Assembly (NCBI GenBank): GCA_964490075.1
Contig: CAZBBK010000068.1
Coordinates: 1 to 32,199 of the forward strand
Source: an uncultured Gemmatimonadota bacterium
GTDB taxonomy: Bacteria > GCA-2686955
Reading direction: 5' to 3'
DNA length: 32,199 nt
Shown here: one piece after another, positions 1,772 to 20,613 of the stretch
How the letters are laid out: the number at the start of each line of letters is the position of its first letter
How positions within the stretch are numbered: the stretch's first letter is position 1
Translations under genes and position numbers: made by a program
The notes under the pieces: model-generated
The model's database searches: none
What the model saw: the letters and a program-made list of their open reading frames with translations, nothing else
Told to the model about the DNA's origin: nothing

Positions 1772-2584
1772 CTATGCGCGCCGCAGCGCCGCCACCAGCC
1801 GGCGCACCCGCGCGCTGTCGACCGGGGCGCGCACCTCGCCCCCCTGCTTGACCCAGGTGCCGACGATCGCCCCCTCGGCGAGCGGCATCAGGTCGGCCGC
1901 GCGCGCCGGCGTCAGGCCGGAGCCGAGCAGCACCGCCCGCGTTCCGGCGGCGGCGCGCACCTCTTCCAGCAGCGCCCGGTCGATCGGCGCGCCGGTCGCG
2001 TCGCCCGTCACGATCACCGCATCGGCCAGGCCGCGCTCGAAGGTGTCGCGAGTGGCCGCGCCGGCGGAGATCGGAGCCAACGGGGTGGCGTGCTTGACCA
2101 GCACGTCGGCGAGGATGGCGACCCGCTCGGCGCCGAGCTCGCGGCGGTAGCGCAGCGAGTCGGCCGCCTCGCCCTCGATCAGGCCCTGGTCGGTCAGGGT
2201 GGCGCCGGTGTGTACGTTGATGCGCACGAAGTCGAGCCCTGCCGCGGCGGCGATGCCGAGCGCGGAGCGGGCATCGTTGCGCAGGCAGTTCACGCCCACC
2301 GGCACCTCGAAACGGACCTTCAGCTCGCTGGCGGCGAGAGCGATCGCGGCCACCTGGTGGGGCGCCAGCCGCTCGCCGCGGCTCCCCTTGGCGAAAGGCA
2401 CCGACCCGAAGTTCTCGACGATCAGGGCATCGACGCCGCCCTCGACCAGCGCCTCGGCGTCGGCTCGGGCCCGTTGCAGCACCTTTTCGAAGCCCGCCCC
2501 AGGTTCGCACAGAGGATCGCCCGGCATCGGCGCCAGGTGCACCACGCCGATCAGACCGCGCGGCACTCGGTCAGGCGGTGGCAT
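1772..2584 (-). CDS. btpA: BtpA/SgcQ family protein
   Basis: Motifs GVVHLAPMPG, GVDALIVENFGS.PF, GVNCLRND, ADVLVKHA and ADAVIVTG..TG. Its start overlaps the smc stop (TGATG). Confidence 0.92.
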   Translation of the reverse strand: MPPPDRVPRGLIGVVHLAPMPGDPLCEPGAGFEKVLQRARADAEALVEGGVDALIVENFGSVPFAKGSRGERLAPHQVAAIALAASELKVRFEVPVGVNCLRNDARSALGIAAAAGLDFVRINVHTGATLTDQGLIEGEAADSLRYRRELGAERVAILADVLVKHATPLAPISAGAATRDTFERGLADAVIVTGDATGAPIDRALLEEVRAAAGTRAVLLGSGLTPARAADLMPLAEGAIVGTWVKQGGEVRAPVDSARVRRLVAALRRA

Positions 2585-5500
2585 CAGGCAGTCGATAGAT
2601 GTGCACCGCTCACTCCTTTGAGCGAGGCCAACGCGCCCTCGTCGATCTGGCGGCGCTCGTCGACCCGCAGGGAGAGGATCTTCGAGACGCCGACCTCTTC
2701 CATCGTAATCCCGAAGATCGCGCCGGCCGCCTCCATGGTGCGCTTGTTGTGGGTGATCACCAGGAACTGGGTGTCGTGGGTGAACTTCTCCAGCAGCGTC
2801 ACGAAGCGCAGGATGTTGGCGTCGTCGAGGGGCGCGTCGATCTCGTCCAGGAGACAGAAGGGAGAGGGCCGCACACGGAAGAGGGAGAAGAGCAGCGCGA
2901 TCGCGGTCATGGTCTTCTCGCCGCTGGAGAGCAGGCTCAGCTTCTGCGGACGTTTGCCGCCGGGGCGCGCGATGATGTCGATCGACGCGTCGAGGGGATC
3001 GACATCCTCTTCCAGGAACACATCCGCGTCGCCGTCGGTGAAGAGGGTGGTGAAGAGCTCGCGGAAGTGAGAGCGGATCTGCGCGAAGGTGGTGGTGAAG
3101 GCTTCGCGCGCGGCGGTGTTGATCCGGTCGATCGTCTCCTGCAGCGAGTCGCGCGCGTCGAGCAAGTCCTGGCGCTGCTCGAGCAGGAAATCGAGCCGCT
3201 TGCGCTCCTCGTCGTGCTGCTCGATCGCCAGCACGTTGACCTGCCCCAGGCGATCGAGCGCCCGCCGCAGCTCGTCCAGACGCTGATCGGGGTCTTCCAG
3301 CTCGTCGAACTCCGTGGGATCGGGGATCGGCGCCGGCTCGGGCGCGTCGGCGCTCGGCCGCGCGCCTTCGTCCTCGCCGGCCGCTGCTGCGTCGCCCTCG
3401 CCATCCCCGTCGATTCCGTCGTCGTCGCCCGCCGCGCTCATCGACGCCGATTCGTCCTCCGCCTCGTGCTCCGCGGCGTCGACCGCGCTCGCATCGGCCA
3501 GGTCGATCCGGTGCTGCTGCCGGATCTGTTCGCGCAACGCGCCCTGGTTGGTGCGCAGCTCCACGGCGTCCATCTCCAGGCGGTGCAGCTCCTCGCGCGC
3601 CGCGTCGTGGCGCCGGCGCGCCGCCCGGGCCCGCTCCTCCAGTCCCCGCAGCTCCTCCTTCACCTCGCTCATCGCGGCCCGCATCGTGTCGGTCCTGCCG
3701 GCCGATTCCTGCTCGTCGGCCAGCGCAGCCTGCAACGCCGACTCGATCGTCCCCGCTTCGTCGGCGAGCCCTTCCAGCGTGCCGGCGGCATCGTCCATCT
3801 CCGCCCGCAGGCGCTCGATCCGCACCTCCATCTCTTCGAGCCGCTCTTTCTCTCTGCTCTCGGCGGCCCGCAGGTTGTCGATCTCGGCCTCCAGGCGAGC
3901 CGCCGCCAGGCGGTTGGCGGCCACCTCGTCCTCGGCGATCTGGCGCGCCTGGCGGGCCTGGCGCAGCGCGCCCTCGCCCTCGTCCAGAGCCGACGACTGC
4001 TCGCTGCGGTGGACGTCGCTCGCCTCCAGCTCACCCCCCAGAGACTCCACCTCGCGGCGCAGCGCGGCCGCGTTCTCCTCGCCCGCGGCGATGGCCGCGC
4101 TCGAGCGCTCGATCTCGGCATCGGCGGCGACGCGGCGATCGCGCAGGCGCTGCGCCTCCATCTCGCAGCGGTGGGCCTCGTCGCGCGCCCCGTCCCGCTC
4201 CGCGCCGACCTCTGCGATCTCCACCTTCAGCGCCCGGCCGGCCTGCAGCGCCCGCTGGGCTGCGTCGCGCGCCTCGTCCAGCTCTCGGTTCAAGCTTCCC
4301 ACCTGCTCCTCGGACTGTCCGATCTCGCGCTTGCGCGCCAGCAGCGAGCCGCTGTCGCGATCCCCCTCGCGGCCGCCCACGATCAGGCCTTCCGGGGTCA
4401 CCACCTCGCCGGCCGCCGTGACGTAGGTCCAGCCCGGATCGGCCCGGTCCGCGAGCCGGCGTAGCGCCACGTCGAGGTCGTCGACGATCAGCACGTCGGC
4501 CAGCAACGTCCCAACCAGGTCGGCGCTGCTCCGGTCCGGCGCCTCGATCTTGTCGGCCGCCGGACCGACGATTCCGTCTCCGCGGGGCACCTCGGTCGCG
4601 GCCTCGCCGGGGGAGCGCCCGCGCCCCGCCAGCGAGCGCGGCAACAGTGCGACCCGTCCCCAGTCCTGGTCGACGACCCGCCCCAAGGCCGCCCGCGCCG
4701 CGGCCTCGTCGCGGGTCAGCACCGCTTGCAGGCGCTCCGCCAGCACCGCCTCGACCGCATGCTCGTAGCCGCCGGCAACCTGCACGATCGACGCCAGCAC
4801 GCCCTCGAGGCCGTCCTCCGTTCCGTGCTCCGCGAGCAGCTCGCGCACCGCCCGCCCGTAGCCCTCGAGGCGCGCCTCCAGGTCGCGCAGCACACCGATC
4901 CGGGCCTCGCCCGCATCGCGCCGGCCGCGCAGATCCTCCACCGCGCCGCGCAGCCGCTCGCCTTCGGCGGCCAGCTCCGTCTCGCGGCTCGCCAGCGTCG
5001 CCAGCGCCTCTGCCGCCACCGCCTCGCGCTCGCGCGCGCGCTCCAGCGAGTCATCGAGATCGCGCAGCACCTGCTCGGTCTCGGCGCGCTCGGCCCGCGC
5101 CCGCGCTTGGCGCTCCTGCTCCGCCCGCCGCTGCTCTTCCAGCGCGTCGGCCCGCGCCCGAAACGCCGACTCCTTCTGGGAAAGACGCTCCCGGGCCTGC
5201 ATCCGCGCCATCACCTCGGCGCGCAGCGTCTCGAGCTCCGCGTGCAGCCGCTCCTCGGTGCCGCGCCGCTCCCGCACCAGCTCGTCGCCGCCCCGCTCCC
5301 GCGCCCGCGCCGCCTGCAGCGGCTCGTCGAGCTCGGCCGCGCGTTCGCCGTGTCGGGCGCGCGATTCGGCCACCGCGCCGCATGCCGCCCGCAGCTCCTC
5401 GATCTCGGCCGCCGCCCGTTCGCGCCCCGCCTCCAGGCCCCGCCGGCGCTCGCGGTTCACCACCGCGTCGCGCTCCAGGCTCGCCACCCGCGCCCGCCGG

Positions 5501-6375
5501 TGCGACAGATCGAGCTCCGCCTCGCGCAGCTCGCCCGCCTGCTGGTCGGTGCTGGTGCGCAGCGCCTCCAGCGCGGCGTCGGCGCGCCCCGAGTCGGCCC
5601 GCGAGCCCGCCTCCTCGTCGGTCAGGCTCCTCTCGCGCGCCTCCAGGTCGGCCAGCCGGGTGCCGTACTCCTCCCAACGCAGGCGCGCGGTGTGCAGCTC
5701 CAGGCGCACGATCTCGGCCCGCAGCCGGCGGTAGCGGCGCGCCTTGCGCACCTGGTAAGCGAGGCTGCGCACCCCCTTCTCCACCTCGGCGACGATGTCG
5801 CTCAGACGCTCCAGGTTTCCTTCGGCTTCCTGCAGGCGCCGGCCGGTGGTCTTCAGGCGGTCCTTGTAGCGCATGATGCCGGCCGCCTGCTCGAAGAGAG
5901 TGCGGCGCTCGGCCGGATTGGTGCTGATGATCTGCTCGACCATCTTGAACTCGAGCACCGAGTAGGCGTCCTTGCCGACGCCGGTGTCGAGGAAGAGGTC
6001 GGTGATGTCCTTGAGGCGGCAGGGGACCTTGTTGATCAGGAAGTCGGAGACCCCGTCGCGAAACACCCGGCGGGTGATCGCCAGGTCCTCGTAGTCGACG
6101 TCGAGGGTGTCGCGCACGCCTTCGAAGGAGAGGGTGACCTCCGCCACCGACAAGGGCTTGCGCTCTCTGGTTCCCTTGAAGATCACGTCGTCCAGGCGCT
6201 CGCCCCGCAACTGGCGCATCGACGACTCACCGAGCACCCAGCGCACCGCATCGGCCACGTTGCTCTTGCCGCAGCCGTTGGGCCCCACGATCGCCGTGAA
6301 GCCGGAATCGAAGTCGATCCGGACCTTGTCGGCGAAGCTCTTGAAGCCGTAGCACTCAAGTCGGGAAAGGCGCAT
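2584..6375 (-). CDS. smc: Chromosome segregation protein SMC
   Basis: GFKSF, Walker A GPNGCGKSN, long coiled coils, central hinge, LGQVN, signature LSSGE, Walker B/D-loop LLDEIDAPLD and ITHN. Confidence 0.98.
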   Translation of the reverse strand: MRLSRLECYGFKSFADKVRIDFDSGFTAIVGPNGCGKSNVADAVRWVLGESSMRQLRGERLDDVIFKGTRERKPLSVAEVTLSFEGVRDTLDVDYEDLAITRRVFRDGVSDFLINKVPCRLKDITDLFLDTGVGKDAYSVLEFKMVEQIISTNPAERRTLFEQAAGIMRYKDRLKTTGRRLQEAEGNLERLSDIVAEVEKGVRSLAYQVRKARRYRRLRAEIVRLELHTARLRWEEYGTRLADLEARERSLTDEEAGSRADSGRADAALEALRTSTDQQAGELREAELDLSHRRARVASLERDAVVNRERRRGLEAGRERAAAEIEELRAACGAVAESRARHGERAAELDEPLQAARARERGGDELVRERRGTEERLHAELETLRAEVMARMQARERLSQKESAFRARADALEEQRRAEQERQARARAERAETEQVLRDLDDSLERAREREAVAAEALATLASRETELAAEGERLRGAVEDLRGRRDAGEARIGVLRDLEARLEGYGRAVRELLAEHGTEDGLEGVLASIVQVAGGYEHAVEAVLAERLQAVLTRDEAAARAALGRVVDQDWGRVALLPRSLAGRGRSPGEAATEVPRGDGIVGPAADKIEAPDRSSADLVGTLLADVLIVDDLDVALRRLADRADPGWTYVTAAGEVVTPEGLIVGGREGDRDSGSLLARKREIGQSEEQVGSLNRELDEARDAAQRALQAGRALKVEIAEVGAERDGARDEAHRCEMEAQRLRDRRVAADAEIERSSAAIAAGEENAAALRREVESLGGELEASDVHRSEQSSALDEGEGALRQARQARQIAEDEVAANRLAAARLEAEIDNLRAAESREKERLEEMEVRIERLRAEMDDAAGTLEGLADEAGTIESALQAALADEQESAGRTDTMRAAMSEVKEELRGLEERARAARRRHDAAREELHRLEMDAVELRTNQGALREQIRQQHRIDLADASAVDAAEHEAEDESASMSAAGDDDGIDGDGEGDAAAAGEDEGARPSADAPEPAPIPDPTEFDELEDPDQRLDELRRALDRLGQVNVLAIEQHDEERKRLDFLLEQRQDLLDARDSLQETIDRINTAAREAFTTTFAQIRSHFRELFTTLFTDGDADVFLEEDVDPLDASIDIIARPGGKRPQKLSLLSSGEKTMTAIALLFSLFRVRPSPFCLLDEIDAPLDDANILRFVTLLEKFTHDTQFLVITHNKRTMEAAGAIFGITMEEVGVSKILSLRVDERRQIDEGALASLKGVSGAHLSTA

Positions 6376-6577: not shown

Positions 6578-8443
6578 ATGTCCCTCATCGATTCCCGCGC
6601 CCTGCTCTCCGCGGCGCTCACGGCGACCGCCCTCGGCGCATCGGCGAACGCCGCTACCCCCTCCCGCGTCTATCCCCTCCTTCCCTGGGAGGAGATCCCG
6701 ATCCACACGCGGGGCGAGCTGATCGTCCGCTTCGCGGACCATGTCGACATCCACGACCTCGCGACCTTCCACGCAGGCATGGGCACCCGCGGGCGGCTGC
6801 TCAGCGAAGGGCTGAAGATGCAGCGGGTGGCCTTCGATCCGAGCATCGACATCGAGCGCATGATCGATCGGCTCAGCGCTTCTCCCCTGGTCGAGTACGC
6901 CGAGCCTAATTGGGTGGGACAGGCCCTCCACGTCCCGGACGACCCGATGTACATCGAGACCGGCAAGTGGAACGACGTCTACGTCGCCGAGGCCTTCCAC
7001 CTCTTCCCGATCGACGTCGAGCGCGGCTGGGACAGCGCCACCGGCGAAGGCGTCGTCATCGCCCACATCGACACCGGGCTCGACTTCGATCATCCCGAGT
7101 TCGAAGGTCAGCTCTGGGTCAACGAGGACGAGATTCCCGACAACAATCGTGACGACGACGGCAACGGCGAAAAGGACGACGTGCACGGCATGGATTATGT
7201 CGGCAACAACAAAGGCCGCATGATCGAGATTCTCTTCCCGTGGCTCTACGACACCAAGGACGGCAATCCCGACGTGCACGAGACCGGCAACGACGGTTGG
7301 GGAGTTCCCGACCCCTCGATCGGCAACGGCCAGGACGACAATTTCGACGGCTATGCCGACATCGCCGTCTCCCACGGGACCATGACCGCCGGCGCCTGCT
7401 TCGCGGTGATGGACGACGCTCTCGGCATGCCGGGCGCGGCGCCCGACGCCAAGATCATGGTGCTGCGCGCCATCAACCCCGAGGGCCTGGCGCTCTTCGC
7501 CGACGTGATCGCGTCGATCGACTACGCCACCGAGAACGGCGCCGACATCATCAATCTGAGCCTCGGCTGGCCGATCGAAGGACGGTCGCTGCGCGAGGCC
7601 TGCGAGAACGCCTACGCCAACGGCGTGGTGATCATCGCCGCCAGCGGCAACGCCGCCCACGACGGCATCTCCGACGGCGTCGCCTATCCGGCCGGCTGGC
7701 CGACCACCCTGGCAGTGGGTGCCGGCAACACTTCGTTCGGACGCGCCGAGTACTCCGACTTCGGCGCCGCCCTCGACGTGCTCGCTCCCGGCGGCGACGT
7801 GGTTCTCGAGACCAGCACCTTCACCGAGATCTTCTGGAGCACCTGGGTCGCCTCCAAGGCCGACGACAACGACGGCATCGCGCCGATGGGCACGCCGGGT
7901 TGGGCCGGCGGCGCCGGCACCTCTTTCGCCTCGCCGGTGGTGGCGGGGCTGGCGGCGCTCTTCCTCGAGAAGCACCCCAGCGCCGGACCGGCGGCGGTCT
8001 ACGACGCCTTCCGCCAGTCGGCGATCGACACCGGCCCCGACGGTTGGGACGAGCAGACCGGCTACGGCATGGTCAACGCACGCCGCCTGCTGGGGCAGAC
8101 CATGGGCAAGGTGGCCGGCTTCATCTCACCGGACGACCAGAAGATGCCGCCCGGCCAGACCTACATCTCCAACGTGTTGATCACCAACGACGACGACGTC
8201 GCCCATACGGTCGACTTCGAGATCAATGTCTACGACAACGATCGGGTGCTGATCCCGAGCTACAGCCCGCTCGACACCGGAACGGTGACGCTGGATCCCG
8301 GCGAAGTGGTGCGCGGCTCGTTCCCGCACCCGACCCAGTTCGGCATGCCCCAGGGCGTCTACTTCATCTCGATCGAGCTCTTCGAGAACGACCAGCTGAT
8401 CGACTACGAGGATTTCGCCTTCAACTTCAGCATGTTCCTGTAA
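6578..8443 (+). CDS. Secreted S8 (subtilisin-like) serine peptidase with propeptide and C-terminal Ig-like domain
   Basis: Signal peptide, prodomain (GELIVRF..VEYAEPN), catalytic motifs IDTG, SHGT and GTSFASP, oxyanion AASGN. RBS AGGAG. Confidence 0.95.
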   Translation: MSLIDSRALLSAALTATALGASANAATPSRVYPLLPWEEIPIHTRGELIVRFADHVDIHDLATFHAGMGTRGRLLSEGLKMQRVAFDPSIDIERMIDRLSASPLVEYAEPNWVGQALHVPDDPMYIETGKWNDVYVAEAFHLFPIDVERGWDSATGEGVVIAHIDTGLDFDHPEFEGQLWVNEDEIPDNNRDDDGNGEKDDVHGMDYVGNNKGRMIEILFPWLYDTKDGNPDVHETGNDGWGVPDPSIGNGQDDNFDGYADIAVSHGTMTAGACFAVMDDALGMPGAAPDAKIMVLRAINPEGLALFADVIASIDYATENGADIINLSLGWPIEGRSLREACENAYANGVVIIAASGNAAHDGISDGVAYPAGWPTTLAVGAGNTSFGRAEYSDFGAALDVLAPGGDVVLETSTFTEIFWSTWVASKADDNDGIAPMGTPGWAGGAGTSFASPVVAGLAALFLEKHPSAGPAAVYDAFRQSAIDTGPDGWDEQTGYGMVNARRLLGQTMGKVAGFISPDDQKMPPGQTYISNVLITNDDDVAHTVDFEINVYDNDRVLIPSYSPLDTGTVTLDPGEVVRGSFPHPTQFGMPQGVYFISIELFENDQLIDYEDFAFNFSMFL

Positions 8444-8731: not shown

Positions 8732-10180
<1,449 letters not shown>

Positions 10181-10224
10181 GGGCTCTCTCCTGGCTCGGT
10201 CCGGGCCCCGATCGGCCCGGCCGT

Positions 10225-11004
10225 TCAGAACGATACCGTGACCCCCTGCCGCAGGCGCGCATCGAAGGCATCGACCCCCGGCGGTGGCCGCGCGTCGCGG
10301 TCCAGCGCCAACGAGAGCTCCAACGCCACCCGCTCCCCGGGCCTCACGCTCAGCGCCGTGGTGCTCGACAGGCGCAGGTCGCGCGCGTCGTCGAGCGCCG
10401 GCTGCAGATAGGTCGTGGTCGCCAGCTCCCAACCCGGCGCCGGCGCGATCGATCCCGCGGCATAGCAGGAGAGCCGAGGCGTAGCGCGGCGCAGCTCCTC
10501 GTCGGGCGCCGCCGCGTCGCGCGCGATCCGCTCCAGCTCCAGCATCCCGGCCGCCCCCAGCGCCAGACCGACGCGCTCCGCGTCGCCAGCCACCCGCAAC
10601 CGCACCCCCGCCCCCGCCAGCGCCCGCAGCTCCAGGCGCCGGAATTCGTCCAGCTCTCCCTGGACGAAGCTCTCCAGCGCCCAGCGCGAGCTCCAGTGCC
10701 AGCGATGTCGCAGATGCGCGAAGCGCCGATTGAGATAGCGCTCGCCTCCCGAGCGCCCCAGCTCCGCCGCCCCGGTCAGGAAACCCTGGTGCGCCCCGCG
10801 CCCCAGCTCCAACCACCCTTCGGCGCTCAGCGACAAACTCTCGCTGTTGCCGCCGCGCCACTCCCCGCTCAACCCCGCCGCGCCGCGCAGTCCCGCCTCC
10901 GGCGCGTGCGCCAGGCGCGACTGAACATCGACGATCTGCGCCCCGGCGGGCGCCGCCAAGGCCGTCAGCCAGACCGCGGCCACACAGATCGCGCTGCTGC
11001 GCAA
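10225..11004 (-). CDS. DUF481/YdiY-like outer-membrane beta-barrel protein
   Basis: Signal peptide, AQIVDV start, RGGNSE, FAHLR, ESFVQGE.DEF.RL..R.LAGAG.R, amphipathic strands and terminal Phe. TTG start with AGGAG. Confidence 0.8.
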   Translation of the reverse strand: MRSSAICVAAVWLTALAAPAGAQIVDVQSRLAHAPEAGLRGAAGLSGEWRGGNSESLSLSAEGWLELGRGAHQGFLTGAAELGRSGGERYLNRRFAHLRHRWHWSSRWALESFVQGELDEFRRLELRALAGAGVRLRVAGDAERVGLALGAAGMLELERIARDAAAPDEELRRATPRLSCYAAGSIAPAPGWELATTTYLQPALDDARDLRLSSTTALSVRPGERVALELSLALDRDARPPPGVDAFDARLRQGVTVSF

Positions 11005-11031
11005 TTTCGGTTCTCCTGGTTCGATTCGGCA

Positions 11032-11068
11032 CCGCCGGCCGCTGTCGCGCGCCGGCAGCGGCCGGCGG
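11032..11068. repeat. 16-bp inverted repeat (1 mismatch, 5-nt loop) in divergent intergenic region
   Basis: ccgccggccgctgtcg-cgcgc-cggcagcggccggcgg. Confidence 0.8.
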
Positions 11069-11144
11069 CACAGTATTGCAGACTCGTCGAATATAGTGGC
11101 ACCGCCCCTTGCAACGCCCTCCCGCAGCCGCCACCATTCCCCTC

Positions 11145-12350
11145 ATGCTCTCCCTCTCTTTCTCCCTCGCCCTCGCCCTCGCCACCGCCGCCCCGGCGGA
11201 CCCCGAACCCACCGCCGCAGCCACCCCCGCCCCACCCCACCCCCAGGTCCGCCACGCGACCCCAAACGACCCCGAGGTCCTCCTCGCGACCCGAATCCAC
11301 GCCCCCCCGCCGATCGTCGACGGCGTAGTCGATCCCCTCTGGGCCACCGCGCCGCCGCTGGCGATCGCAACCTCGGTCTGGGAGATCGCCGAGTTCGCCG
11401 GCTACGGCGGCAAGAGCTACCGCGCCACGCTGCGCGCGCTCTACGACGACACCAGGCTCTACATCCTGGCGCAATGGGACGATTCCACCCGCAGCGCCGA
11501 CCGCCAGGAATGGTATTTCGACCCCGGCGCCGGCCGTTGGGTCCAGGAGTCGGGCCGGCCCACCTTCGCGAGCGGCCAGCTGGTCGAGCCGGCCCACTAC
11601 GAAGACAAGCTGAGCTTGATCTGGAACATCGACGGAAGTGTCGCGGAGTTCGCGGACCAAGGGTGCATGGTGCTCTGCCACACCGGCGTCCGCGGTCACC
11701 CCTTCGGCAAGACCGCACTCAAGCACACCAACGCCGCTGCCGAAAGAGCCGACATGTGGCACTGGAAGCTGGTGCGCACCAACGCCGTGAACCAGGCCGA
11801 CGATCAGCACGTCGACCACAGCGCGAGCGAGAAGGGCGGCGGCCGCCACGGCGACAGCGCCGCGGGGGGCGGCTACTCCGCGAATATGCAGCTCGTTGGT
11901 CATCCGGCCGGCGGCCGGGAAGCGGCGATCCCCCGCTACTACATTCCCGGGCGCACCGAATACAACACAATTCTGCACAGCGAAATCGCGATCGGCTTGG
12001 CGGTCGAGATCGAGACGCTGAGCCCCGACGGATCGCTGGTCGACGCCCGGGGCGCAGTCCTCGCGCCGACCGACTTCCCACGCCGCGGCCCGAGCCGAAT
12101 CCCCAGCGTCACCATCGCCCCCTTCCGCGGCAGCAGAGGCGACCTGCAAAGCCACGGGCGCCACGACGGCGCCGGATGGACGGTCGAGATCGCCCGCGCC
12201 TTCGAGACCGACGACAAATCACACGACGTGCAATGGTCGGATCGTGGCGCCGGCGCCCGCTACGATTTCGGCTTCGCGGTATTCGACAACGCCCAGATCG
12301 CCCACGCCACCTCGAGCGAGGTTTATCGTCTCCTTTTCGAGCAGCGCTGA
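11145..12350 (+). CDS. Ethylbenzene dehydrogenase-related (DOMON-like heme-binding) secreted protein
   Basis: Signal peptide, P.VDG.VD..W, LRALYD..RLYILAQW.D, YEDKLSLIW, CMVLCH, ADMWHWK..R, WTVEIAR and FGFAVFDNA..H. Start chosen at ATG 11145. Confidence 0.8.
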   Translation: MLSLSFSLALALATAAPADPEPTAAATPAPPHPQVRHATPNDPEVLLATRIHAPPPIVDGVVDPLWATAPPLAIATSVWEIAEFAGYGGKSYRATLRALYDDTRLYILAQWDDSTRSADRQEWYFDPGAGRWVQESGRPTFASGQLVEPAHYEDKLSLIWNIDGSVAEFADQGCMVLCHTGVRGHPFGKTALKHTNAAAERADMWHWKLVRTNAVNQADDQHVDHSASEKGGGRHGDSAAGGGYSANMQLVGHPAGGREAAIPRYYIPGRTEYNTILHSEIAIGLAVEIETLSPDGSLVDARGAVLAPTDFPRRGPSRIPSVTIAPFRGSRGDLQSHGRHDGAGWTVEIARAFETDDKSHDVQWSDRGAGARYDFGFAVFDNAQIAHATSSEVYRLLFEQR

Positions 12351-12381
12351 CGACATTTTTCTATCGCCCAGGAACCCCCCG

Positions 12382-13248
12382 ATGAACCGATCCCGCCTCG
12401 CCCCCCTCGCCGCCGCCCTGTCGCTGCCGATCCTCGCCGGCGGCTGCGCCTCGGTCCAGGAGATCGCCCGCGGCGCCCAGCTCTTGCCCACGGTCGAGAT
12501 GGCCCGCGCCGGCATCGATCGCGTCTCCTTCGATTCGCTCGACCTGCGTTTCGATCTGGCGATCGACAACCCGAACGCGGTGGGCGTCGTTCTCTCCGGC
12601 CTCGACTGGCAGCTCGACTTCAACGACAAACGCTTTGCCGGCGGCACCGACCGCACCACCACCAAGATCGCGGCGCGCGGCCGCAGCACCCTGCCGATCC
12701 CCGCCACCGTCCACTTCAGCGACCTCTACGACACCATTACCTCTCTGGGCGGAGCCGCCGAGCTGCCCTACCGCTTCCACGGCTCGCTCGGCTTCGAGGT
12801 TCCGATCCTCGGCCGCGTCGCGGTCCCGATCAGCCACTCCGCGACCATCCCCGCTCTGCACGCCCCTTCGGTCGATGTCGCGGCGCTCGAAATCCGTCGC
12901 TTCTCACTGACCGGCGCCGACCTGGAGCTGCGCCTCGACGTCGACAACCCGAACGCCTTCGGCCTGATCCTCGACGCCCTGCGCTTCGACCTTGCCCTCG
13001 CCGGCGCCCGCGTGGCCTCCGGTAACGCGGGCCAATCGACGCCGATCGCGGGCGGCGACCAGGGCACGCTGCACATCCCGGTGGCGCTCGACTTCATGAG
13101 CACCGGTCGGGCCCTCTACACGGCACTGCGCGGCGGCAGCATCGACTGCAAGATCGGCGGCACCCTCGGCCTGGGCACCACCCTGCCGGAGATCGAATCT
13201 CTGTCTCTACCCTTTTCGTTGGCGGGTGCGGTGCCGATCAAACGATGA
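12382..13248 (+). CDS. LEA type 2 (WHy) family lipoprotein with two tandem domains
   Basis: Lipobox-like LAGGC and two repeats of L.L.[I/V]DNPNA. ATG at 12382 after AGGA. Confidence 0.9.
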   Translation: MNRSRLAPLAAALSLPILAGGCASVQEIARGAQLLPTVEMARAGIDRVSFDSLDLRFDLAIDNPNAVGVVLSGLDWQLDFNDKRFAGGTDRTTTKIAARGRSTLPIPATVHFSDLYDTITSLGGAAELPYRFHGSLGFEVPILGRVAVPISHSATIPALHAPSVDVAALEIRRFSLTGADLELRLDVDNPNAFGLILDALRFDLALAGARVASGNAGQSTPIAGGDQGTLHIPVALDFMSTGRALYTALRGGSIDCKIGGTLGLGTTLPEIESLSLPFSLAGAVPIKR

Positions 13249-13460
13249 TCGAGGCGCCTTGGTTTGGAAGAGGCCCCCTTCGGGGGACAGAGTGTGGCCG
13301 AGTCCCGTTTTGAGTCCGCGGCATCGCCCCCGGCTCTTCGAGGCTTCCGGACGCATGGCAGTTCAGCTCACCGGCGCCCATCTGCATCGGCCCGGTCGAA
13401 GGGCCGGGCCGGAGGTTAGTCTTCTCCAACCCCCCCGAATCCCTCAACCGGAGCGACGAC

Positions 13461-14303
13461 ATGCCCCAGCGCGCCTTCGCGACGGCCCTGACCGGCGCGC
13501 TGATCTCAGCCTCCGCGGCCTCCGCCTACCAGGTGGGCGACATCACCGACGACTGGACCGTGCTCGACGCCTGGGAAGAGGTATCGCATCGGCTCTACGA
13601 CTACCGGGGCAAGCTGGTCCTCGTAAACCTCTTCCGCGACACCTGAGGCGGCTGCATGCTGGAGGCTCCAGCACTCGAAACGAATATCTGGCAGCCCTTC
13701 AAGGACCGCGGCGTCATGGTCTTCGCCATGAACCGCTTCTCTTACAAGATGGCGCAAGACTGGATCACCGAGTACGAGCTCAGCTACCCCGTGCTCTACG
13801 ACCCGCCGCCCTCCGACGCCTACTGGAGCTACGCGCACCAAGTGCTGCCGCAAAACACACTCACTGACCGCAACTTCGAGGTGATCTTCGACCAGTCCGC
13901 GGGCTACGACGAGGAAGAGATCATCGAGCGGATCGAAGAGCATCTGCACCCCGTCGCGGTGGTGCTGGCGGGTTCGTCCGAGCAGGTGGTCGCCGGCGAC
14001 GACTTCGCCTTCGATGCCCAGCTGAAGAACTGGGGCGACAGCGCGCACAGCTTCGACGCCTGGATCGACGTCATCCTGCCGGGCCATCGACGCCTGCCCA
14101 ACAACCCGCGGCTCGGACCGCTGGCGATCACGCTCGGCGCCGGTCAAACCTGGATCGCGGCGCTTTCGCTATCGGTCCCCGCCCGCACGCCGGCGGCCGA
14201 CAACTATCGAATCAAGCTCTCGATCGGATCGTTCGGCGCCGACGAAATCCGCAACTGCGACCTGATCGAAGTCGACGTGGTGGCCGGAGATCGTCAGCGC
14301 TGA
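13461..14303 (+). CDS. Secreted TlpA/AhpC-TSA-type redoxin selenoprotein (UxxC) with C-terminal Ig-like domain, 280 aa
   Basis: ORFs 13461..13646 and 13656..14303 are in one frame, separated only by TGA-GGC-GGC-TGC. The joined reading is [25 protein letters not shown], at the thioredoxin-fold CxxC position. A SECIS-like hairpin follows and selA is nearby. Confidence 0.9.
13644..13677 (+). promoter_or_regulatory. Bacterial SECIS-like element
   Basis: TGA at 13644-46, a 10-nt spacer, then stem TGCTGGA / loop GGC / TCCAGCA (13657-13673). A lower pairing TGAG/CTCG is possible. Confidence 0.75.
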
Positions 14304-15106
14304 CACTTTCCGCAGTAGTATGTCGCTCGCTGCCCCTGGCGGCGCATGCGTAGCTCACGGCCACAGCGCGCGCAAGAGTCGCCGGCGCGGCCGTAGACCT
14401 GCAGCGACAGTCCGAAGTAGCCGGGCTCGCCGTCGGCGCGGGTGAAGTCGCGCAGACTGGTGCCGCCCTGATCGATCGCCTCTCGCAGCACCTGCTGAAT
14501 CGCGTCCGCCAGGCGCCGGTGGCGCGGCAGCGAGATCCGCCCGGCGGCGCGAAAGGGGTGGATCTCGGCGCGGAAGAGCGTCTCGCTGGCGTAGATATTG
14601 CCCACCCCCACCACCACCGCCGCGTCCATGATGAAGGGCTTGACGGCCAGACGCCGGCCGCGCGAGCGCGCGAAGAGATGCGCGCCGTCAAAGGCCGCCT
14701 CCAGCGGCTCCGGACCGAGCTTGGCCAGCAGCGGATGGTCGAGGGGGCGGCGCTCGGTCCAGAGCAGAGCGCCGAAGCGGCGCGGATCGCGCAGCCGCAG
14801 CGCGCGCCCGTCGTCGAGCTCGATGTCGACGTGATCGTGGGGTCCGGGCGGCGCGCCGGCCGGCACGATGCGCAGGCTGCCCGACATGCCCAGGTGGATG
14901 ATGGCAGTGCCGCGCACCGTCTCCAGCAGCAAGTACTTGCCGCGGCGGCGCACCGTCGTGAAGGTCTGCCCGCGCAGCCGCCGAATCCGCGCCGGCACCG
15001 GCCAGCGCAAGCGCGGCTGGCGCACAACGATCCGCTCGACCGCGCGGCCCTGCAGATGGGGCGCGATGCCGCGCCGGGTGATCTCCACTTCGGGCAGCTC
15101 AGGCAC
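14294..15106 (-). CDS. mutM: Formamidopyrimidine-DNA glycosylase / AP lyase
   Basis: N-terminal PELPEVE, RRGKYL, HLGMSG, DPRRFG, H2[11 protein letters not shown] and C-terminal CxxC..CxxCQ zinc finger. Confidence 0.98.
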
Positions 15107-15130: not shown

Positions 15131-18100
15131 TCATCGTCCGAACACTCGAAAGCCGGCCCAGAAGTAGGGGTGCGACTCGGGGGCGATGCGCTCGAGCCGC
15201 GGGTCGGCGCGCTGGTCCGCGAGCTGCTCGCGCCGAGCTTCCGCCAACGCGGCCACCGCGTCGCCGTCGGCGGCGGCCAAGGCTCGGTAGAAACGCTCGA
15301 TCAGGACGACCACGCCGCGGTCCTCGACCGACCACAGCGACGCCACCACGGCACGCGCCCCGGCCTGCACGAAGGCCCGGCTGAGACCGAGGATTCCCTC
15401 GGCTCCCGAGACCCGTCCACCGGCCACGTGGCAGGCCGAAATGACGACGATCGGCGCGCGCTCCAGCGTCACTTCGGCGATCTCGTAAGATTGCAACCAG
15501 GCGTCCTCGCGGTGTCGCGCCCCGGCCGAGAGCACCACCCCGGCATAGGAAGGATCGTCGCCGTCGACCAGCCCGTGACAGCCGAGATGAATGATGTCGG
15601 CAGCGCCCGCATGCTCGCGATAGGCCGCCTCACGGGCCTGCTCGCGCACCAATGCCCGCGTCTTGGGATAAATCTGTTGCAGAAGGCGCACCTCTTCGGC
15701 GGTGCCGGGCAGACGCGGCAGGTGGACCAGGGTGTCGGCCGAGGACTCCGCCTGCGCGTAGACCGGATCGCCGAACGCCAGCACCGTCGGCTCCGCCGCG
15801 GGAGCGCCGCGGGCGCGAATCAACGCCGGATCGAGCAGGGTCGCCGAAGGACCGTAGCCGATCTCGAAGCGCTCGCAGACGTACTCCGGCGCCGCGAAGC
15901 GGTCGACGCCCTCGCCCGCGTCCCAGCCCCTTTCGCCCGGCATCCGCAGCACCAGCATCTCGAAGGGCAGGCGGTGCAGCGGCCCGGAGGGCACGACCAA
16001 GAGCCGCCGCACTCCCTGCAAATGCTCCAGCGCCGACTCCAGAACCCAGTGCGCCAGGCGCCGCAGGTCGCGCGGGAGCAACGCCACCGGGCGCGGTGTG
16101 TCGCCGACCAGCGGCGCCACAACTTTGTCCACCAGGGCCTCGATCTCGGCGACCCCGCGCTCGAGAGTGAGCGCGTGCGCGCGCTCTTCGCGCACCACCC
16201 ACAGGTGCAGCACGTCCCCCGCGGCGAAGTACTCCAGCAGCGCCACATCCGCACCCGCGACCACCCGCTCCCGCACTCGCGCCAGATCGAGCGGCTTCAC
16301 CAATCCCTCGCTCGCCGCCAATCCCGGATCGGCGAGCGCCAGGTCGTCGAGCAGCGCGCTGTGCTCGCGGCGCACCCGCTGCAGCTCGCCCTCCAGGTAG
16401 CCGACCAATCCCCTGCGCGGGGCCGGAGCGGATTTCTCTTCGATCAGCGCGTCCTGCAACGCCCGCAGATGCAGCTCCAATCCGCTTCTCTTCTCGTCCA
16501 CCGCGCCGGCGGCCGCGCCGCTGCCGCGCTCCCCGCGCACCAGTTCGAGCAGCGAGCGTGCCTTGGCCCGCTCGGCCATCTCGAAGGCGCGCTCCGGGTC
16601 CCCGGCGTCCTCCAGGAAAAATGTGCCGGCATCGCCCAGCAAGGGCTGCGATCCCTCCAACACCCGCACCCGCCGGCTGTCGGCACCGATGTCTCGCAAC
16701 AGATGCTCCGCGTCGTCCACCGCCCTCTCGTACTCGGCGGCGGCCGCACCAGTGTCTCCCACGCTTCGCAGCGACTCGGCCAGCACGTGACGCGCGTCGA
16801 TCAGCGCCAATATATCGGCCGCCCCGTCCAGGCAGCGACAGGCCCGTGTCGCCAACACCACCGCGCGCCTTGGCCGGCCACGCCGGAGCTCGGCGCGACT
16901 CCAGTCCCTGAGCACCGTGCCCTCGCCGCGGACATTCCCCAAGCGTCGATGGAGCGCCAGCGCCCGCCGTTGCAGACGCCGCGCCTCGCGGGTCTCGCCC
17001 GCCGTCTCTCGCAAGGCGGCCAAAGACACGAGACACTTCGCCTGTCCCGTCTGATCGCCCACATCGCGGTGAATCTCGAGGGCCTGCTCGAAGAGATCGA
17101 GCGCGCGACCAAGCTCGCCGGCGGCCCGCCGCCCGTCCGCCAGCTCGCGGATCGCCTCGGCCTCGCTGGCGCGGTCGCCCAGTTCCCGAAAGATCGCCAG
17201 CGCCCGGTCGAAGAGATTCGCGGCACGCTTCGGATCGCCGGTCTGACGGTGCAGCTTGGCCAGGTTCTGCAGCGTGACCCCCTCGAAACGTCGATTGCCC
17301 ATCTCGCGCTGGATCCGCAGCGCCCGGTCGAGAAGCTCGCGCGCACGACCGTAGTTCCCACCATGATGCATGTGAACGCCCAGGTTCAAGAGCGCCATCC
17401 CCTCGGTCCACCGGTCTCCAACCTCCCGGCAGATCGCCACCGCCCGCTCCAGCAGCTCATCGGTACGGAGCGTGTCGCCCATCTTCTGGCTGCGGATCGC
17501 GAGGTTGCAGAGCGCCGCCGCCTCGCTGCGCCGGTTGCCGACCTCGCGATGAATGGCGAGCGCTTGCTCCAGGCTCTTGCGGATGTCCCTCGGGTCTCCT
17601 TGCTCGTCGGAAAAGGTCGTCAGGCTGGCGAGCGTCATCCCCTCGCCGAGACGGTCGCCGATCCCCCGCTGCAGCGCCAGGGCGGCGTGAAAGAGTTCCA
17701 TCGCCGATTCCGATTCGCCGATGATCCCGCGCAGATGCGCCAGGAGCTGCGCACCTTGACCGGCCGAGCGCCGGTCGCGGACCGCGAGCGCCTCGGCGAT
17801 GGCGGCGCGCGCAAAGCGCATGGCGCTGACCGGCCCGCTGACCGACATGGCGCGCCGGGTGACCACGAGATTGGCGCGGGCGCGCTCTCTGCCGGTACGC
17901 GCCCGGTCCAGCACCGCGGCACGAATCTCGTCCAGATCGCCGGGCGATCCGCGCAGCAGAGCGATCTGGGCGTGCAGGGTGCGCGCCCAATGCCGAAGCG
18001 CACGCGGAGCGTCGCAGCGCAGCACCCAGTCGACGATCTCCAGCGGGCGGTCGGTGTGGCCGCGCAGCAGATGCTCGCACAGGGCGAGGGCCACCACCGG

Positions 18101-18529
18101 CTCGTGGGCGGGCGGGTCGGGGCGGGGGAAGGCCGGCAGGACGCTTGCGGTCAGCTCTCGGTGCCAGTCGCCGGAGCGCGCCAGGCGCGCCGCGAGAGGG
18201 CCGAAGACCGCGTCGTCGATCCGCCGCAGCGCCTCCCAGTGGAGCATCGCCCGCTCGGCGGCATGCAGCCGCGGCGCGGAGGCGGGCGCACGGGATGCCG
18301 GAGCGAGACACAAGTCGGGATCCGATTCGACCGCCGCGCGGATCGCGGGCGGCACATCCGCCCAGGCGCCTGGTCCCTTCTCAGACCACTCCTCGGCCCG
18401 CTCGGCCGCCACCAGACTCGCCTCGGCGATCTCGCGCAGCGCCTCCGAATCCCAGGGAAACGACTCCACGAAGCTCCGGAGCGTGGCGACGCGGTCCTGC
18501 TCGAGCAGCTTCGGGACGATCTGTGACAT
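15131..18529 (-). CDS. TPR-repeat + CHAT (caspase-like) protease
   Basis: Multiple TPRs (e.g. ALAIHREVGNRRSEA), ERAKARSLL, PSGPLHRLPF, catalytic His in HLGCHG (15575-77) and Cys in ISACH (15431-33), VVASLW.V.D and PYFWAGF. Start is uncertain (ATG 18529 chosen). Confidence 0.93.
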   Translation of the reverse strand: MSQIVPKLLEQDRVATLRSFVESFPWDSEALREIAEASLVAAERAEEWSEKGPGAWADVPPAIRAAVESDPDLCLAPASRAPASAPRLHAAERAMLHWEALRRIDDAVFGPLAARLARSGDWHRELTASVLPAFPRPDPPAHEPVVALALCEHLLRGHTDRPLEIVDWVLRCDAPRALRHWARTLHAQIALLRGSPGDLDEIRAAVLDRARTGRERARANLVVTRRAMSVSGPVSAMRFARAAIAEALAVRDRRSAGQGAQLLAHLRGIIGESESAMELFHAALALQRGIGDRLGEGMTLASLTTFSDEQGDPRDIRKSLEQALAIHREVGNRRSEAAALCNLAIRSQKMGDTLRTDELLERAVAICREVGDRWTEGMALLNLGVHMHHGGNYGRARELLDRALRIQREMGNRRFEGVTLQNLAKLHRQTGDPKRAANLFDRALAIFRELGDRASEAEAIRELADGRRAAGELGRALDLFEQALEIHRDVGDQTGQAKCLVSLAALRETAGETREARRLQRRALALHRRLGNVRGEGTVLRDWSRAELRRGRPRRAVVLATRACRCLDGAADILALIDARHVLAESLRSVGDTGAAAAEYERAVDDAEHLLRDIGADSRRVRVLEGSQPLLGDAGTFFLEDAGDPERAFEMAERAKARSLLELVRGERGSGAAAGAVDEKRSGLELHLRALQDALIEEKSAPAPRRGLVGYLEGELQRVRREHSALLDDLALADPGLAASEGLVKPLDLARVRERVVAGADVALLEYFAAGDVLHLWVVREERAHALTLERGVAEIEALVDKVVAPLVGDTPRPVALLPRDLRRLAHWVLESALEHLQGVRRLLVVPSGPLHRLPFEMLVLRMPGERGWDAGEGVDRFAAPEYVCERFEIGYGPSATLLDPALIRARGAPAAEPTVLAFGDPVYAQAESSADTLVHLPRLPGTAEEVRLLQQIYPKTRALVREQAREAAYREHAGAADIIHLGCHGLVDGDDPSYAGVVLSAGARHREDAWLQSYEIAEVTLERAPIVVISACHVAGGRVSGAEGILGLSRAFVQAGARAVVASLWSVEDRGVVVLIERFYRALAAADGDAVAALAEARREQLADQRADPRLERIAPESHPYFWAGFRVFGR

Positions 18530-18738
18530 CGGGCGTGGGACTCGAGAAACCAGAAGCGAAACGCGACGGGACGGTGGCTGTCGCCCCCCGGAGACGGCTC
18601 GACCATACCCGACCTCGGGTCCGCCGCCCACGCGGCTGTCGAAGATCGCTTCGTCGGTCGATGGTCCAGAAAGATGCCCGTGGACCAGCATCCGTTATAG
18701 TTTGAGTGCTCGACCCGTTCCACGCCTGGAGACCACCC

Positions 18739-20613
18739 GTGAGAATCTTCCGCGCTCTGGCGGCCCTGTGGCTGCCCGCGCTCCTTGCCTCGGCGCACGC
18801 TGCCGTGCTCACCGTGCCGGTTCCCTACGCCAAGATTCAAGACGCGATCAACGCCGCCGCGGTCAGCGGCGACACGGTGGTCATCGACAGTGTCGCCTCC
18901 CCGTACATGGGACCGGGCAACATCGATCTCTCGTTCGAGGGCAAAGAGGTGGTGGTCCAGAGCCTCGATCCCTTGTTGCCTCAGGTTCGCGACGCCACCG
19001 TGATCGATGCCGCCGATACTTCTCGCATCGCCTTGATCGACCAGGGCGAGGGCCCCGGCGCCAAGCTGCGCGGGCTGACATTGCGCAACGGCGGCAGTAG
19101 AACCTCCGGCCCCTTCGCCGGAAGCGGCGGCGCCCTGCTTTGCGTCGGCACCAGACCGGCGGTCGAGAACTGCAAGATCGTCAACAGCCAGGCCTGGGAC
19201 GGCGGCGGGGCGGCCTGCGTCGACGGCGCGAGCGTGAAGCTGATCGACTGCCTGATCCACGCCAACAGCGCCGAAGAAGAGCTGAACGGGACCGGGCGCG
19301 GCGGGGCGGTCTACGCGTCGCAGAGCTCGGTCGTCGAGCTGCGCCGCTGCACTCTGGAGCAGAACGACGCCGAACGCAACGGCGGCGCGGTCTTCGCCGA
19401 CGGCCAGAGCAGACTGGTGGTGATCCAGTCGACCCTGACCGGCAACCACGCGGGCAACGACGGCGGGGCGATCGCGGCGCTGAACGTGGCGCAGCTTCGG
19501 GTCCTGAAGTCGCAGATCCGCAACAACGACGCCGCCCGTTTCGGCGGCGGCCTGCGGGTCCACGGGAATTTCTACCCGATCATCTCAGCCTGCGAAATCC
19601 AGCTCAACGACGCCGGCGATACCGGAGGAGGGATGTACCTCACCAAGGCGTCGGGGATCGTGCGTTTCAGCAACTTCATCAACAACGAAGCCGAGCGCGG
19701 CGGCGGCGGCCTGCACGCCGGCCAATCGAACGTCACCCTACTGCGCTGCCAGATCCTGCGCAACGAGCTGACGTCCAACGCGGTGGCCAACGGCGGCGGC
19801 ATCCAGTTCGTCGGCGGCGCGCCGCAGGTGGTGGCCTCGAGAATCGGCATCAACACCGCCCAGTCCGGCGGCGGCGTGGCGGCCCTGGCGCAGTCGAAGC
19901 CGACGCTGGTGAGCTGCATCATCGACTCCAACATCGTGCTGCTGCTCGACGAAGCGGCCGGTGCGGGCGGAGGCGTGCTGGCCGCCGACTCGTCTCCGAT
20001 CCTGTCCCACTGCACGCTCGTCCACAACGAAATGACGATCGCCGGCGGCGCTCTCTACGTAGAGGGCGCCTCGTCGACCGTCGAGGTCCACAACAGCATC
20101 CTTTACTTCAACGATGGCAACCAGATCGACGTGGCCGCGGGCTCGGTGACGGTCGACTACACCGACGTCGAGGGGGGCTACACCGGTTTCGGCAACATCG
20201 ATGTCGAGCCGACCTGGGAAGGCAACTTCCTACCGGATTTCAAGTACATTCCCGACGTGATGGCGGCGGTGGTCGACTCCGCCGATCCGGGCGACCCCGA
20301 CGACTACATCGACTGGTGCGGGTTCGCCGACACTTTCGGCATCGAGCTATGGTGTACCGACTCCGACACCAACACCTGCGCCCCCGACATGGGCGCCTAC
20401 GGCGGGCAGGAAGCCGAGTGGTGGATGAAAGGCACACCGGGGCAGATCCTCGATCCCTGCGGGATGTCGATGAGCCCCCTCTCCGCTATGATCGACGTGG
20501 ACGAAGTGAAGCCGGAGCCGGACCCGGTGCCTCCGGTGCCACTGGCGGCGCTCCACCGCCGGCCCGACGAAGACCGAGACCGGCCCGGGGCCGGACGGCA
20601 AGAAGCGCGCTGA
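18739..20613 (+). CDS. Secreted right-handed parallel beta-helix repeat protein
   Basis: Signal peptide, N-cap VP.PY.KIQDAINAA..GDTV, many N.A..GGA/GGG repeats and C-terminal PDMGAYGG. GTG start with GGAG. Confidence 0.88.
   Translation: MRIFRALAALWLPALLASAHAAVLTVPVPYAKIQDAINAAAVSGDTVVIDSVASPYMGPGNIDLSFEGKEVVVQSLDPLLPQVRDATVIDAADTSRIALIDQGEGPGAKLRGLTLRNGGSRTSGPFAGSGGALLCVGTRPAVENCKIVNSQAWDGGGAACVDGASVKLIDCLIHANSAEEELNGTGRGGAVYASQSSVVELRRCTLEQNDAERNGGAVFADGQSRLVVIQSTLTGNHAGNDGGAIAALNVAQLRVLKSQIRNNDAARFGGGLRVHGNFYPIISACEIQLNDAGDTGGGMYLTKASGIVRFSNFINNEAERGGGGLHAGQSNVTLLRCQILRNELTSNAVANGGGIQFVGGAPQVVASRIGINTAQSGGGVAALAQSKPTLVSCIIDSNIVLLLDEAAGAGGGVLAADSSPILSHCTLVHNEMTIAGGALYVEGASSTVEVHNSILYFNDGNQIDVAAGSVTVDYTDVEGGYTGFGNIDVEPTWEGNFLPDFKYIPDVMAAVVDSADPGDPDDYIDWCGFADTFGIELWCTDSDTNTCAPDMGAYGGQEAEWWMKGTPGQILDPCGMSMSPLSAMIDVDEVKPEPDPVPPVPLAALHRRPDEDRDRPGAGRQEAR

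Follow-up and report, generated by a model that had tools for sequence, protein, structure and literature searches.

A candidate exported selenoprotein of an uncultured Gemmatimonadota bacterium joins a UxxC thioredoxin-fold domain to a CARDB/RbmA-like C-terminal domain

Contig CAZBBK010000068.1 of assembly GCA_964490075.1, from an uncultured Gemmatimonadota bacterium, provides the 32,199-nucleotide stretch of DNA analysed here – referred to throughout, at its full length, as the window. On its forward strand lie two open reading frames (ORFs), at 13461..13646 (61 aa) and 13656..14303 (215 aa), which share one frame and are split only by a TGA codon at 13644-13646. Reading through this codon from 13461 to 14303 gives a protein of 280 residues with a single internal TGA, at residue 62, and a terminal TGA at 14301-14303. 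Here, we present evidence that this is very probably one gene, encoding an exported, selenocysteine (Sec)-containing thiol-disulfide oxidoreductase with a CARDB/RbmA-like C-terminal tail, in which the UGA is decoded by way of a hairpin. The features of the locus are listed in Table 1.

The original prediction for this locus, made before any database search, proposed that the two ORFs fuse in frame through one TGA, that the TGA occupies the place of the first Cys in a CxxC motif, and that standard pipelines would record it as two genes or a pseudogene. The single 280-residue frame bears out the first of these proposals; a Pfam match running across the codon and the corresponding column of a family alignment, both described below, agree with the second; and public databases do store the protein as two pieces. 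The local motif is DT-U-GG-C, in which the TGA stands for the leading residue of CxxC within a ResA/TlpA-like thioredoxin fold. A check for TGC, TGT or TGG at this codon found TGA retained, identically, in the contigs of three public sequencing runs (X1, X2 record 6 and X4 record 14), run X3 having no coverage of it. The TGA is no assembly error.

Table 1. Predicted and observed features of the selenoprotein locus, in window coordinates
Feature	Coordinates	Strand	Evidence
Predicted selenoprotein coding sequence, 280 residues, Sec at 62	13461..14303	+	Orthologues align over residues 1-279 across the TGA
Shine-Dalgarno-like GGAG, 7 nt upstream of the ATG	13450..13453	+	Direct sequence reading
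Predicted Sec-type signal peptide, residues 1-22, A-S-A before Y23	13461..13526	+	Predicted from sequence
ResA/TlpA-like thioredoxin-fold domain, residues about 25-162	13533..13946	+	Pfam AhpC-TSA and Redoxin, NCBIfam, AlphaFold2, Foldseek
TGA, predicted selenocysteine U62 opening the U-G-G-C redox motif	13644..13646	+	Frame, orthologues, run contigs
TGC, Cys65, partner residue of UxxC	13653..13655	+	Column is Cys in 16/16 full-length A3 rows
SECIS-like hairpin, 7-bp stem, GGC apical loop	13657..13673	+	Folding and conservation
C-terminal beta-sandwich (Ig-like, CARDB/RbmA-like), residues about 165-274	13953..14282	+	Strand pattern, Foldseek, VIA-align, A4 profile
TGC, Cys266, redox-capable, motif N-C-D in the tail	14256..14258	+	Invariant in 9/9 A1 rows
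selA (L-seryl-tRNA(Sec) selenium transferase)	8732..10180 (upper end approximate)	-	Pfam SelA (427 bits) and Se-cys_synth_N

The first of the two domains is a recognizable redoxin. Pfam AhpC-TSA (PF00578) matches residues 26-115 (E 2.3e-11; 44.2 bits against a cut-off of 26). This match runs across the TGA; a stop at the codon would truncate the thioredoxin fold before its active-site helix. The AlphaFold2 model of the full-length protein (predicted local distance difference test score, pLDDT, 91.2) has a thioredoxin fold followed by an eight-strand beta-sandwich. Foldseek places ResA (1su9/1st9), a Bacillus thiol-disulfide oxidoreductase and DsbE-like structures at the top, 4nmu being among these matches (target-normalised TM 0.83-0.89; root-mean-square deviation, rmsd, about 1.9-2.3 Å). 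The matches to 4nmu, 1su9 and 1st9 cover 137-142 columns, and the fold includes the helical insertion typical of TlpA/ResA. Streptococcal proteins of the thioredoxin family rank lower, as does the C-terminal part of DipZ with its two domains. The window protein (P0001) falls below the curated cut-offs of the ResA, TlpA and DsbE equivalogs (NF002854, NF047696 and TIGR00385): its best NCBIfam match, to ResA, reaches 51.5 bits where the cut-off is 170; TlpA gives 18.1 against 230, and DsbE is not listed for it. It stays far short of the cut-off of every curated NCBIfam model. The signal peptide is predicted from a basic residue, a hydrophobic stretch and a small-x-small motif. Family members in alignment A3 show AxA and then Y or G at the cleavage-site column, and most of residues 1-17 are modelled with a pLDDT under 50.

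A search of genomes and metagenome contigs recovered orthologous loci with 50-54% identity to the window protein, spanning both sides of the TGA, and the reading of that codon put forward in the original prediction is backed by its presence in the same column in all six distinct loci (the window, L020, L021, L023, L024 and L025; L030 is the same contig as L020, L026 as L021 and L027 as L023). L020 and L021 come from metagenome-assembled genomes labelled Gemmatimonadota and TA06 (a candidate division). The motifs at the TGA are DT-U-GGC, DT-U-AGC, TT-U-PGC, TT-U-SGC and TW-U-GSC. Public protein sets contain the family solely as fragments cut at this codon: all eight near-length database homologues begin downstream of it, with called starts that vary (A1 columns 66, 67, 71 and 86), and four entries of 56-64 residues in a representative protein library stop exactly before it, one of them being the window's own upstream ORF. 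A 64-aa N-terminal piece (P0031) and a 190-aa C-terminal piece (P0161), both on 17263-base contigs, probably represent a single gene that was called as two halves.

More distant relatives carry Cys in place of the TGA. In alignment A3 the column is TGA in 10 of the 16 full-length rows and Cys in the other six (L033, L035, L039, P0013, P0024 and P0029), which have the same two-domain form and place the first Cys of CxxC there. The Cys-bearing relatives and paralogues with this layout are 27-34% identical to the window protein, and a check for homologues with Cys at the TGA column found them only at this distance. One paralogue group mixes EYW-U-GSC (L031, L032 and L034) with EYW-C-GPC (L033, L035 and L039), which is the Sec/Cys pattern usual in selenoprotein families.

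The 7-bp hairpin that the original prediction had placed 10 nt past the TGA is present at that distance, and its conservation and covariation make it a candidate bacterial selenocysteine insertion sequence (SECIS). Its 5′ arm (TGCTGGA, 13657-13663) and 3′ arm (TCCAGCA, 13667-13673) enclose a GGC loop (13664-13666) that starts 17 nt past the UGA. The orthologues have a stem of 7-8 bp, an identical GGC loop and an equal distance from the UGA in all cases. Across the hairpin alignment (six sequences, five of them distinct, from about four lineages) the stem positions pair in 92.5% of cells, compared with 27.5-62.5% when the partners are slid by 1-3 columns; four of the eight stem pairs are altered on both sides by compensatory change, and none of 500 shuffles reaches the covariation score. 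At one pair the silent third position of a Pro codon varies (A, A, U, G) in step with the opposite base (U, U, A, C), a match not explained by protein constraint. In other organisms the TGA, the hairpin and the protein sequence around them are conserved beyond what chance would give. According to PMC1088965, bacterial SECIS elements have in common a stem-loop directly after the UGA and a small apical loop that includes G, and the window hairpin fits that description. A separate set of paralogues with the motif ASW-U-(G/S)SC (L036, L038 and G000:C38:37416-37465, where G000 is the genome of the window and C with a number is one of its contigs) carries a separate hairpin, equally far from the UGA, with a loop of AGUUG or AGUUA and compensatory stems UUGCGG/CCGCAA, UUGUGG/CCACAA and GUGCGG/CCGCAC.

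The genome (5.7 Mb in 136 contigs, 68% G+C) has the machinery for Sec incorporation. Within the window, matches to SelA and Se-cys_synth_N cover residues 396-849 of an 871-aa open frame (8732..11347), and the start of selA is about 3.3 kb from 13461, the distance given in the original prediction. A check of the genome for selB, selC and selD found selB (378 bits), selD (318 bits) and tRNA-Sec (75 bits), and all of these, like selA, score above curated cut-offs. Both tRNA-Sec and SelA also occur in all five other genomes that bear TGA members of the wider family. TGA also terminates the gene described here and is thus an ordinary stop in this organism, which counts against an altered genetic code. 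The selD gene (G000:C65:32509-33429, minus strand) itself has one in-frame TGA, and the selenophosphate synthetase is probably a selenoprotein too.

The C-terminal beta-sandwich resembles several Ig-like domains. Folded alone, the tail gives a pLDDT of 94.7; Foldseek relates it to CARDB (3idu, TMq 0.66) and RbmA (4kkp, TMq 0.73-0.75), and VIA-align to RbmA (Z 12.2) and a dextranase N-domain (Z 12.4) among many Ig-like domains. A profile built from alignment A4 – 21 tails, 10 of them redoxin-linked and 11 from other proteins – finds RbmA among PDB sequences at E 2e-11. Among the curated models searched at E up to 1, Pfam NEW3 (PF10633) matches nine of the 21 A4 tails (best 1.7e-5) and CARDB (PF07705) one, NCBIfam matches none of the 21, and the window's own tail matches no model of either Pfam or NCBIfam at E limits of 5 or 1. 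The original prediction had described an Ig-like or sorting domain at the C-terminus; the Ig-like beta-sandwich is upheld by the model, Foldseek and VIA-align, but as to sorting there is no detectable type A domain of the type IX secretion system (T9SS).

A single-pass profile search places the tail domain in 92 stop-to-stop ORFs of the genome, at most 10 residues from the stop in 60 of them and at most 30 residues in 71. Nineteen carriers were scanned against Pfam, of which 14 have identifiable families and five have none; the families include four subtilases, three M14 carboxypeptidases, a C13 peptidase, CotH with LTD, LTD alone, a beta-helix protein and a BNR-like protein, with weak matches to pullulanase-X25 and Omp28/DUF1223. 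The tail thus looks like a module of extracytoplasmic proteins, usually the last one, and any role we suggest for it is drawn from this terminal position in many proteins of secreted type. Cys266 is the sole Cys of the mature protein outside the active site; of the 10 redoxin-linked A4 tails, 8 have a Cys in this turn, but none of the 11 other tails has one at that column. Within the window, a subtilase with a fervidolysin-like prodomain (6578-8443, plus strand) has a C-terminus that matched the iterated tail profile (E 4.7e-5, in the third iteration only).

The genome also encodes a T9SS, including SprA, PorU and at least 37 type A tails, and the tail of the selenoprotein was considered as a T9SS type A domain and rejected: neither TIGR04183 nor PF18962 matches it at E up to 1, hhalign, run against 20 of this genome's type A tails, gives a probability of 1.7%, and the N-P-F-N-P motif is absent. 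At least one protein (C40:1334-6775) has the tail domain upstream of a type A tail.

Computation shows a single frame, a conserved TGA, a conserved and covarying hairpin, a complete Sec machinery, two recognisable folds and a tail that is mostly terminal across the genome; from these we infer the following course of events. SelB carrying Sec-tRNA(Sec), recruited by the GGC-loop hairpin downstream within the gene, would decode UGA62 as selenocysteine, and the 280-residue precursor would be exported through its Sec-type signal peptide and cleaved after about residue 22. Outside the cytoplasm, the ResA-like domain of the mature protein would swap electrons with protein thiols or disulfides at U62 and C65, cycling between the selenol/thiol and selenenylsulfide forms. 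Selenium would make the attacking residue more nucleophilic and more readily re-reduced than the Cys of CxxC relatives. The tail, a module common to the organism's secreted peptidases, would most likely hold the enzyme at the cell envelope or farther out, either attached there or bound to a polymer or partner.

Several observations weigh against this account. The runs that confirm the TGA are, like all four runs, from one study, and one of them, X1, is possibly the source of the assembly; among public runs no RNA run was found that contains the 13461-14303 stretch. No Cys orthologue was found at 50% identity or above, and the Sec/Cys pairing depends on the relatives at 27-34%. The structure models were built with Cys replacing Sec. 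The covariation sample is thin (five distinct sequences from about four lineages), and the stem lies within coding sequence, so that protein constraint adds to its conservation. Its folding energy is no better than that of shuffles (z -0.92 for the 77 nt after the UGA; for the 34-nt core, z ranges over five loci from +0.13 to -1.65 and is -0.20 in the window), and the case for the hairpin therefore relies on its conservation instead. An Rfam scan of 13400-13900 at E up to 10 found no family, a result of little weight as bacterial SECIS elements are poorly covered there. The tail is internal in 21 of the 92 ORFs (31-200 residues from the end in 13 and more than 200 in eight), and may be a general extracellular module, not a targeting device. 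Lastly, no partner gene is common to the four neighbourhoods compared (the window, L020, L023 and L025), and none of these points to a substrate or electron donor.

A different account accepts the Sec residue and gives the protein a more ordinary setting, as a periplasmic ResA/TlpA-type reductase fed by a CcdA/DsbD-type donor, the beta-sandwich being an accessory for binding substrate or partner and not a display or sorting module. We regard this as possible, if on balance doubtful. The nearest structural matches, ResA and DsbE-like proteins, are reductases that work outside the cytoplasm in cytochrome maturation and related pathways, and Foldseek aligns both domains with the C-terminal part of DipZ (5cyy and 2hyx), though at an rmsd of 18-19 Å. 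The behaviour of the tail divides the two accounts: it is not detectably a type A T9SS domain and lies internally in some proteins of the genome, but 60 of 92 ORFs end with it, and the proteins that bear it are chiefly peptidases of kinds normally active outside the cell. Nor does a donor or substrate gene adjoin the locus in any of the four neighbourhoods.

Two further explanations deny the Sec residue itself, and to both we attach a very low probability. If the TGA were a true stop, the locus would be a pseudogene or two separate small genes. Gene callers do split it and databases store only the pieces, the hairpin energy is unremarkable, and no RNA run holding the stretch was found; yet a true stop would have to be reconciled with the same TGA in six of six loci at 50-54% protein identity with both sides conserved, with a thioredoxin fold cut ahead of its active-site helix, with the differing called starts of the downstream pieces, and with a genome that retains the full Sec machinery. 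The TGA might otherwise be read as a standard residue, Trp or Cys, through near-cognate decoding or an altered code, and the identity of an inserted residue cannot be told from sequence alone. This is just as improbable, since TGA also terminates the gene, the column is Cys – the usual Sec counterpart – in homologues, the hairpin is placed where bacterial SECIS elements lie, and tRNA-Sec, selA, selB and selD are present here, with tRNA-Sec and SelA in the other carrier genomes.

This genome has four UxxC paralogues of the redoxin kind. The three others are ResA-like genes with an in-frame TGA at the first CxxC position, at G000:C1 43334 (EYW-U-GSC), G000:C38 37416 (ASW-U-SSC) and G000:C77 19006 (ASW-U-PVC), and the C1 and C38 copies share the tail family; a Cys paralogue with EYW-C-GPC lies at G000:C66:15987-16733. 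In the C77 gene (G000:C77:18892-19617) the ASW-U-PVC redoxin runs in frame into a type A T9SS tail (TIGR04183, 29.2 bits, 19378-19617), making it a candidate T9SS-exported selenoprotein; its relatives L045 and L047 are similarly arranged.

The genes around the orthologous loci vary. The window has a LEA_2 protein and mutM as neighbours, and L020 has beta-helix/PMP-like proteins. At L025 (711-2187, minus strand) a low-molecular-weight (LMW) phosphatase-like protein, of a family that includes some arsenate reductases, lies with an SBF-family transporter, a pair not seen at the other loci. In the window, mutM/fpg (formamidopyrimidine-DNA glycosylase; 14294-15106, minus strand) converges on the selenoprotein gene, and their 3′ ends overlap by 10 nt. 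The flanks also include a 1186-aa TPR-CHAT protein (15131-18691, minus strand), an SMC protein (2584-6375, minus strand) and the LEA_2 protein, which has two repeats (12244-13248, plus strand); none suggests a link to the redoxin.

A broader extension, which we offer tentatively and consider rather unlikely, is that this organism and its relatives export a set of Sec oxidoreductases to the surface or medium by using the C-terminal modules of secreted peptidases (CARDB/RbmA-like here, and a type IX tail in G000:C77), that the tail of the 60 proteins is an undescribed targeting or anchoring domain, and that Cys266 is a third redox residue, working with U-G-G-C or tethering the enzyme. If this were true, selenium-based redox chemistry outside the cell would belong to the ordinary physiology of a marine candidate phylum about which little is known.

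If the redoxins do leave the periplasm, they would act out of reach of any cytoplasmic reductant, which raises two questions: what returns them to their reduced or oxidised state, and why the expense of using selenium pays off there. The tail family, with no Pfam or NCBIfam model covering the window copy, is a candidate new domain, whether for sorting or for association with the envelope. The gene and every database relative found are stored as cut pieces, and the real protein is in this way invisible to standard pipelines.

Among known systems, the closest in domain and motif is the Prx-like thiol:disulfide oxidoreductase family (PF00578; UxxC/UxxU), an established predicted selenoprotein family, listed in PMC13188914 and PMC9312934 and described in PMC1088965; related TlpA-like families of the UGC type also appear in the published selenoprotein tables (PMC13188914, PMC9312934). 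The likeness to the Prx-like family, to the extent that these sources characterise it, includes the PF00578 domain, Sec as the first residue of a thioredoxin-type UxxC and a hairpin within the gene past the UGA, and the two features that define the family in the tables, PF00578 and UxxC, would make the present gene a member. Compared with the published description, the window subfamily is set apart by DT/TT/TW-U-xx-C followed by xEAP and by the 110-residue C-terminal beta-sandwich. With ResA, TlpA and CcmG (DsbE) it shares the fold, an active site at the start of the first helix and, by prediction, export; it differs in having Sec for the attacking Cys, a predicted soluble signal peptide in place of a membrane anchor, an extra C-terminal domain, and scores far below their cut-offs.

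The curated ResA-like selenoprotein models of NCBIfam, WAxxUGC_long (NF041054), redoxin_TUGYCR (NF053656) and SelL_rel_redox (NF040769), likewise combine a thioredoxin fold with Sec in or beside the redox motif. None of them matches the window protein at E up to 1, and the motif differs; for the orthologue P0010 the scores are 17.9 bits with WAxxUGC_long (cut-off 300) and 16.2 with SelL_rel_redox (cut-off 120). DipZ has a TlpA-like domain followed by a beta-sandwich, uses Cys and not Sec, and is joined to a membrane electron-transfer domain. The C-terminal part of Mycobacterium tuberculosis DipZ (2hyx and 5cyy) resembles the window protein in this succession of a thioredoxin-like domain and a beta-sandwich, Foldseek aligning 327-332 columns across both, but the rmsd of 18-19 Å indicates that the arrangement of the domains differs.

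The tail is similar in fold to the FnIII-like domains of CARDB, NEW3 (NPCBM_assoc) and RbmA, and differs from typical CARDB repeats in that its family is the last element in most carriers. It resembles the T9SS type A domain (TIGR04183/PF18962) in being a beta-sandwich at the extreme C-terminus of many proteins of secreted type, but has no detectable sequence relation to it. Among the papers listed in searches of an open-access library, none described such a redoxin-tail fusion or a selenoprotein bearing a type IX tail. The original suggestion that the architecture may be undescribed holds for the fusion and for the subfamily; the class of UxxC PF00578 redoxins is already listed. What appears to be new, then, is a subfamily without a curated model, its members metagenomic and stored split, and the fusion of its redoxin to a CARDB/RbmA-like terminal domain that secreted hydrolases also carry.

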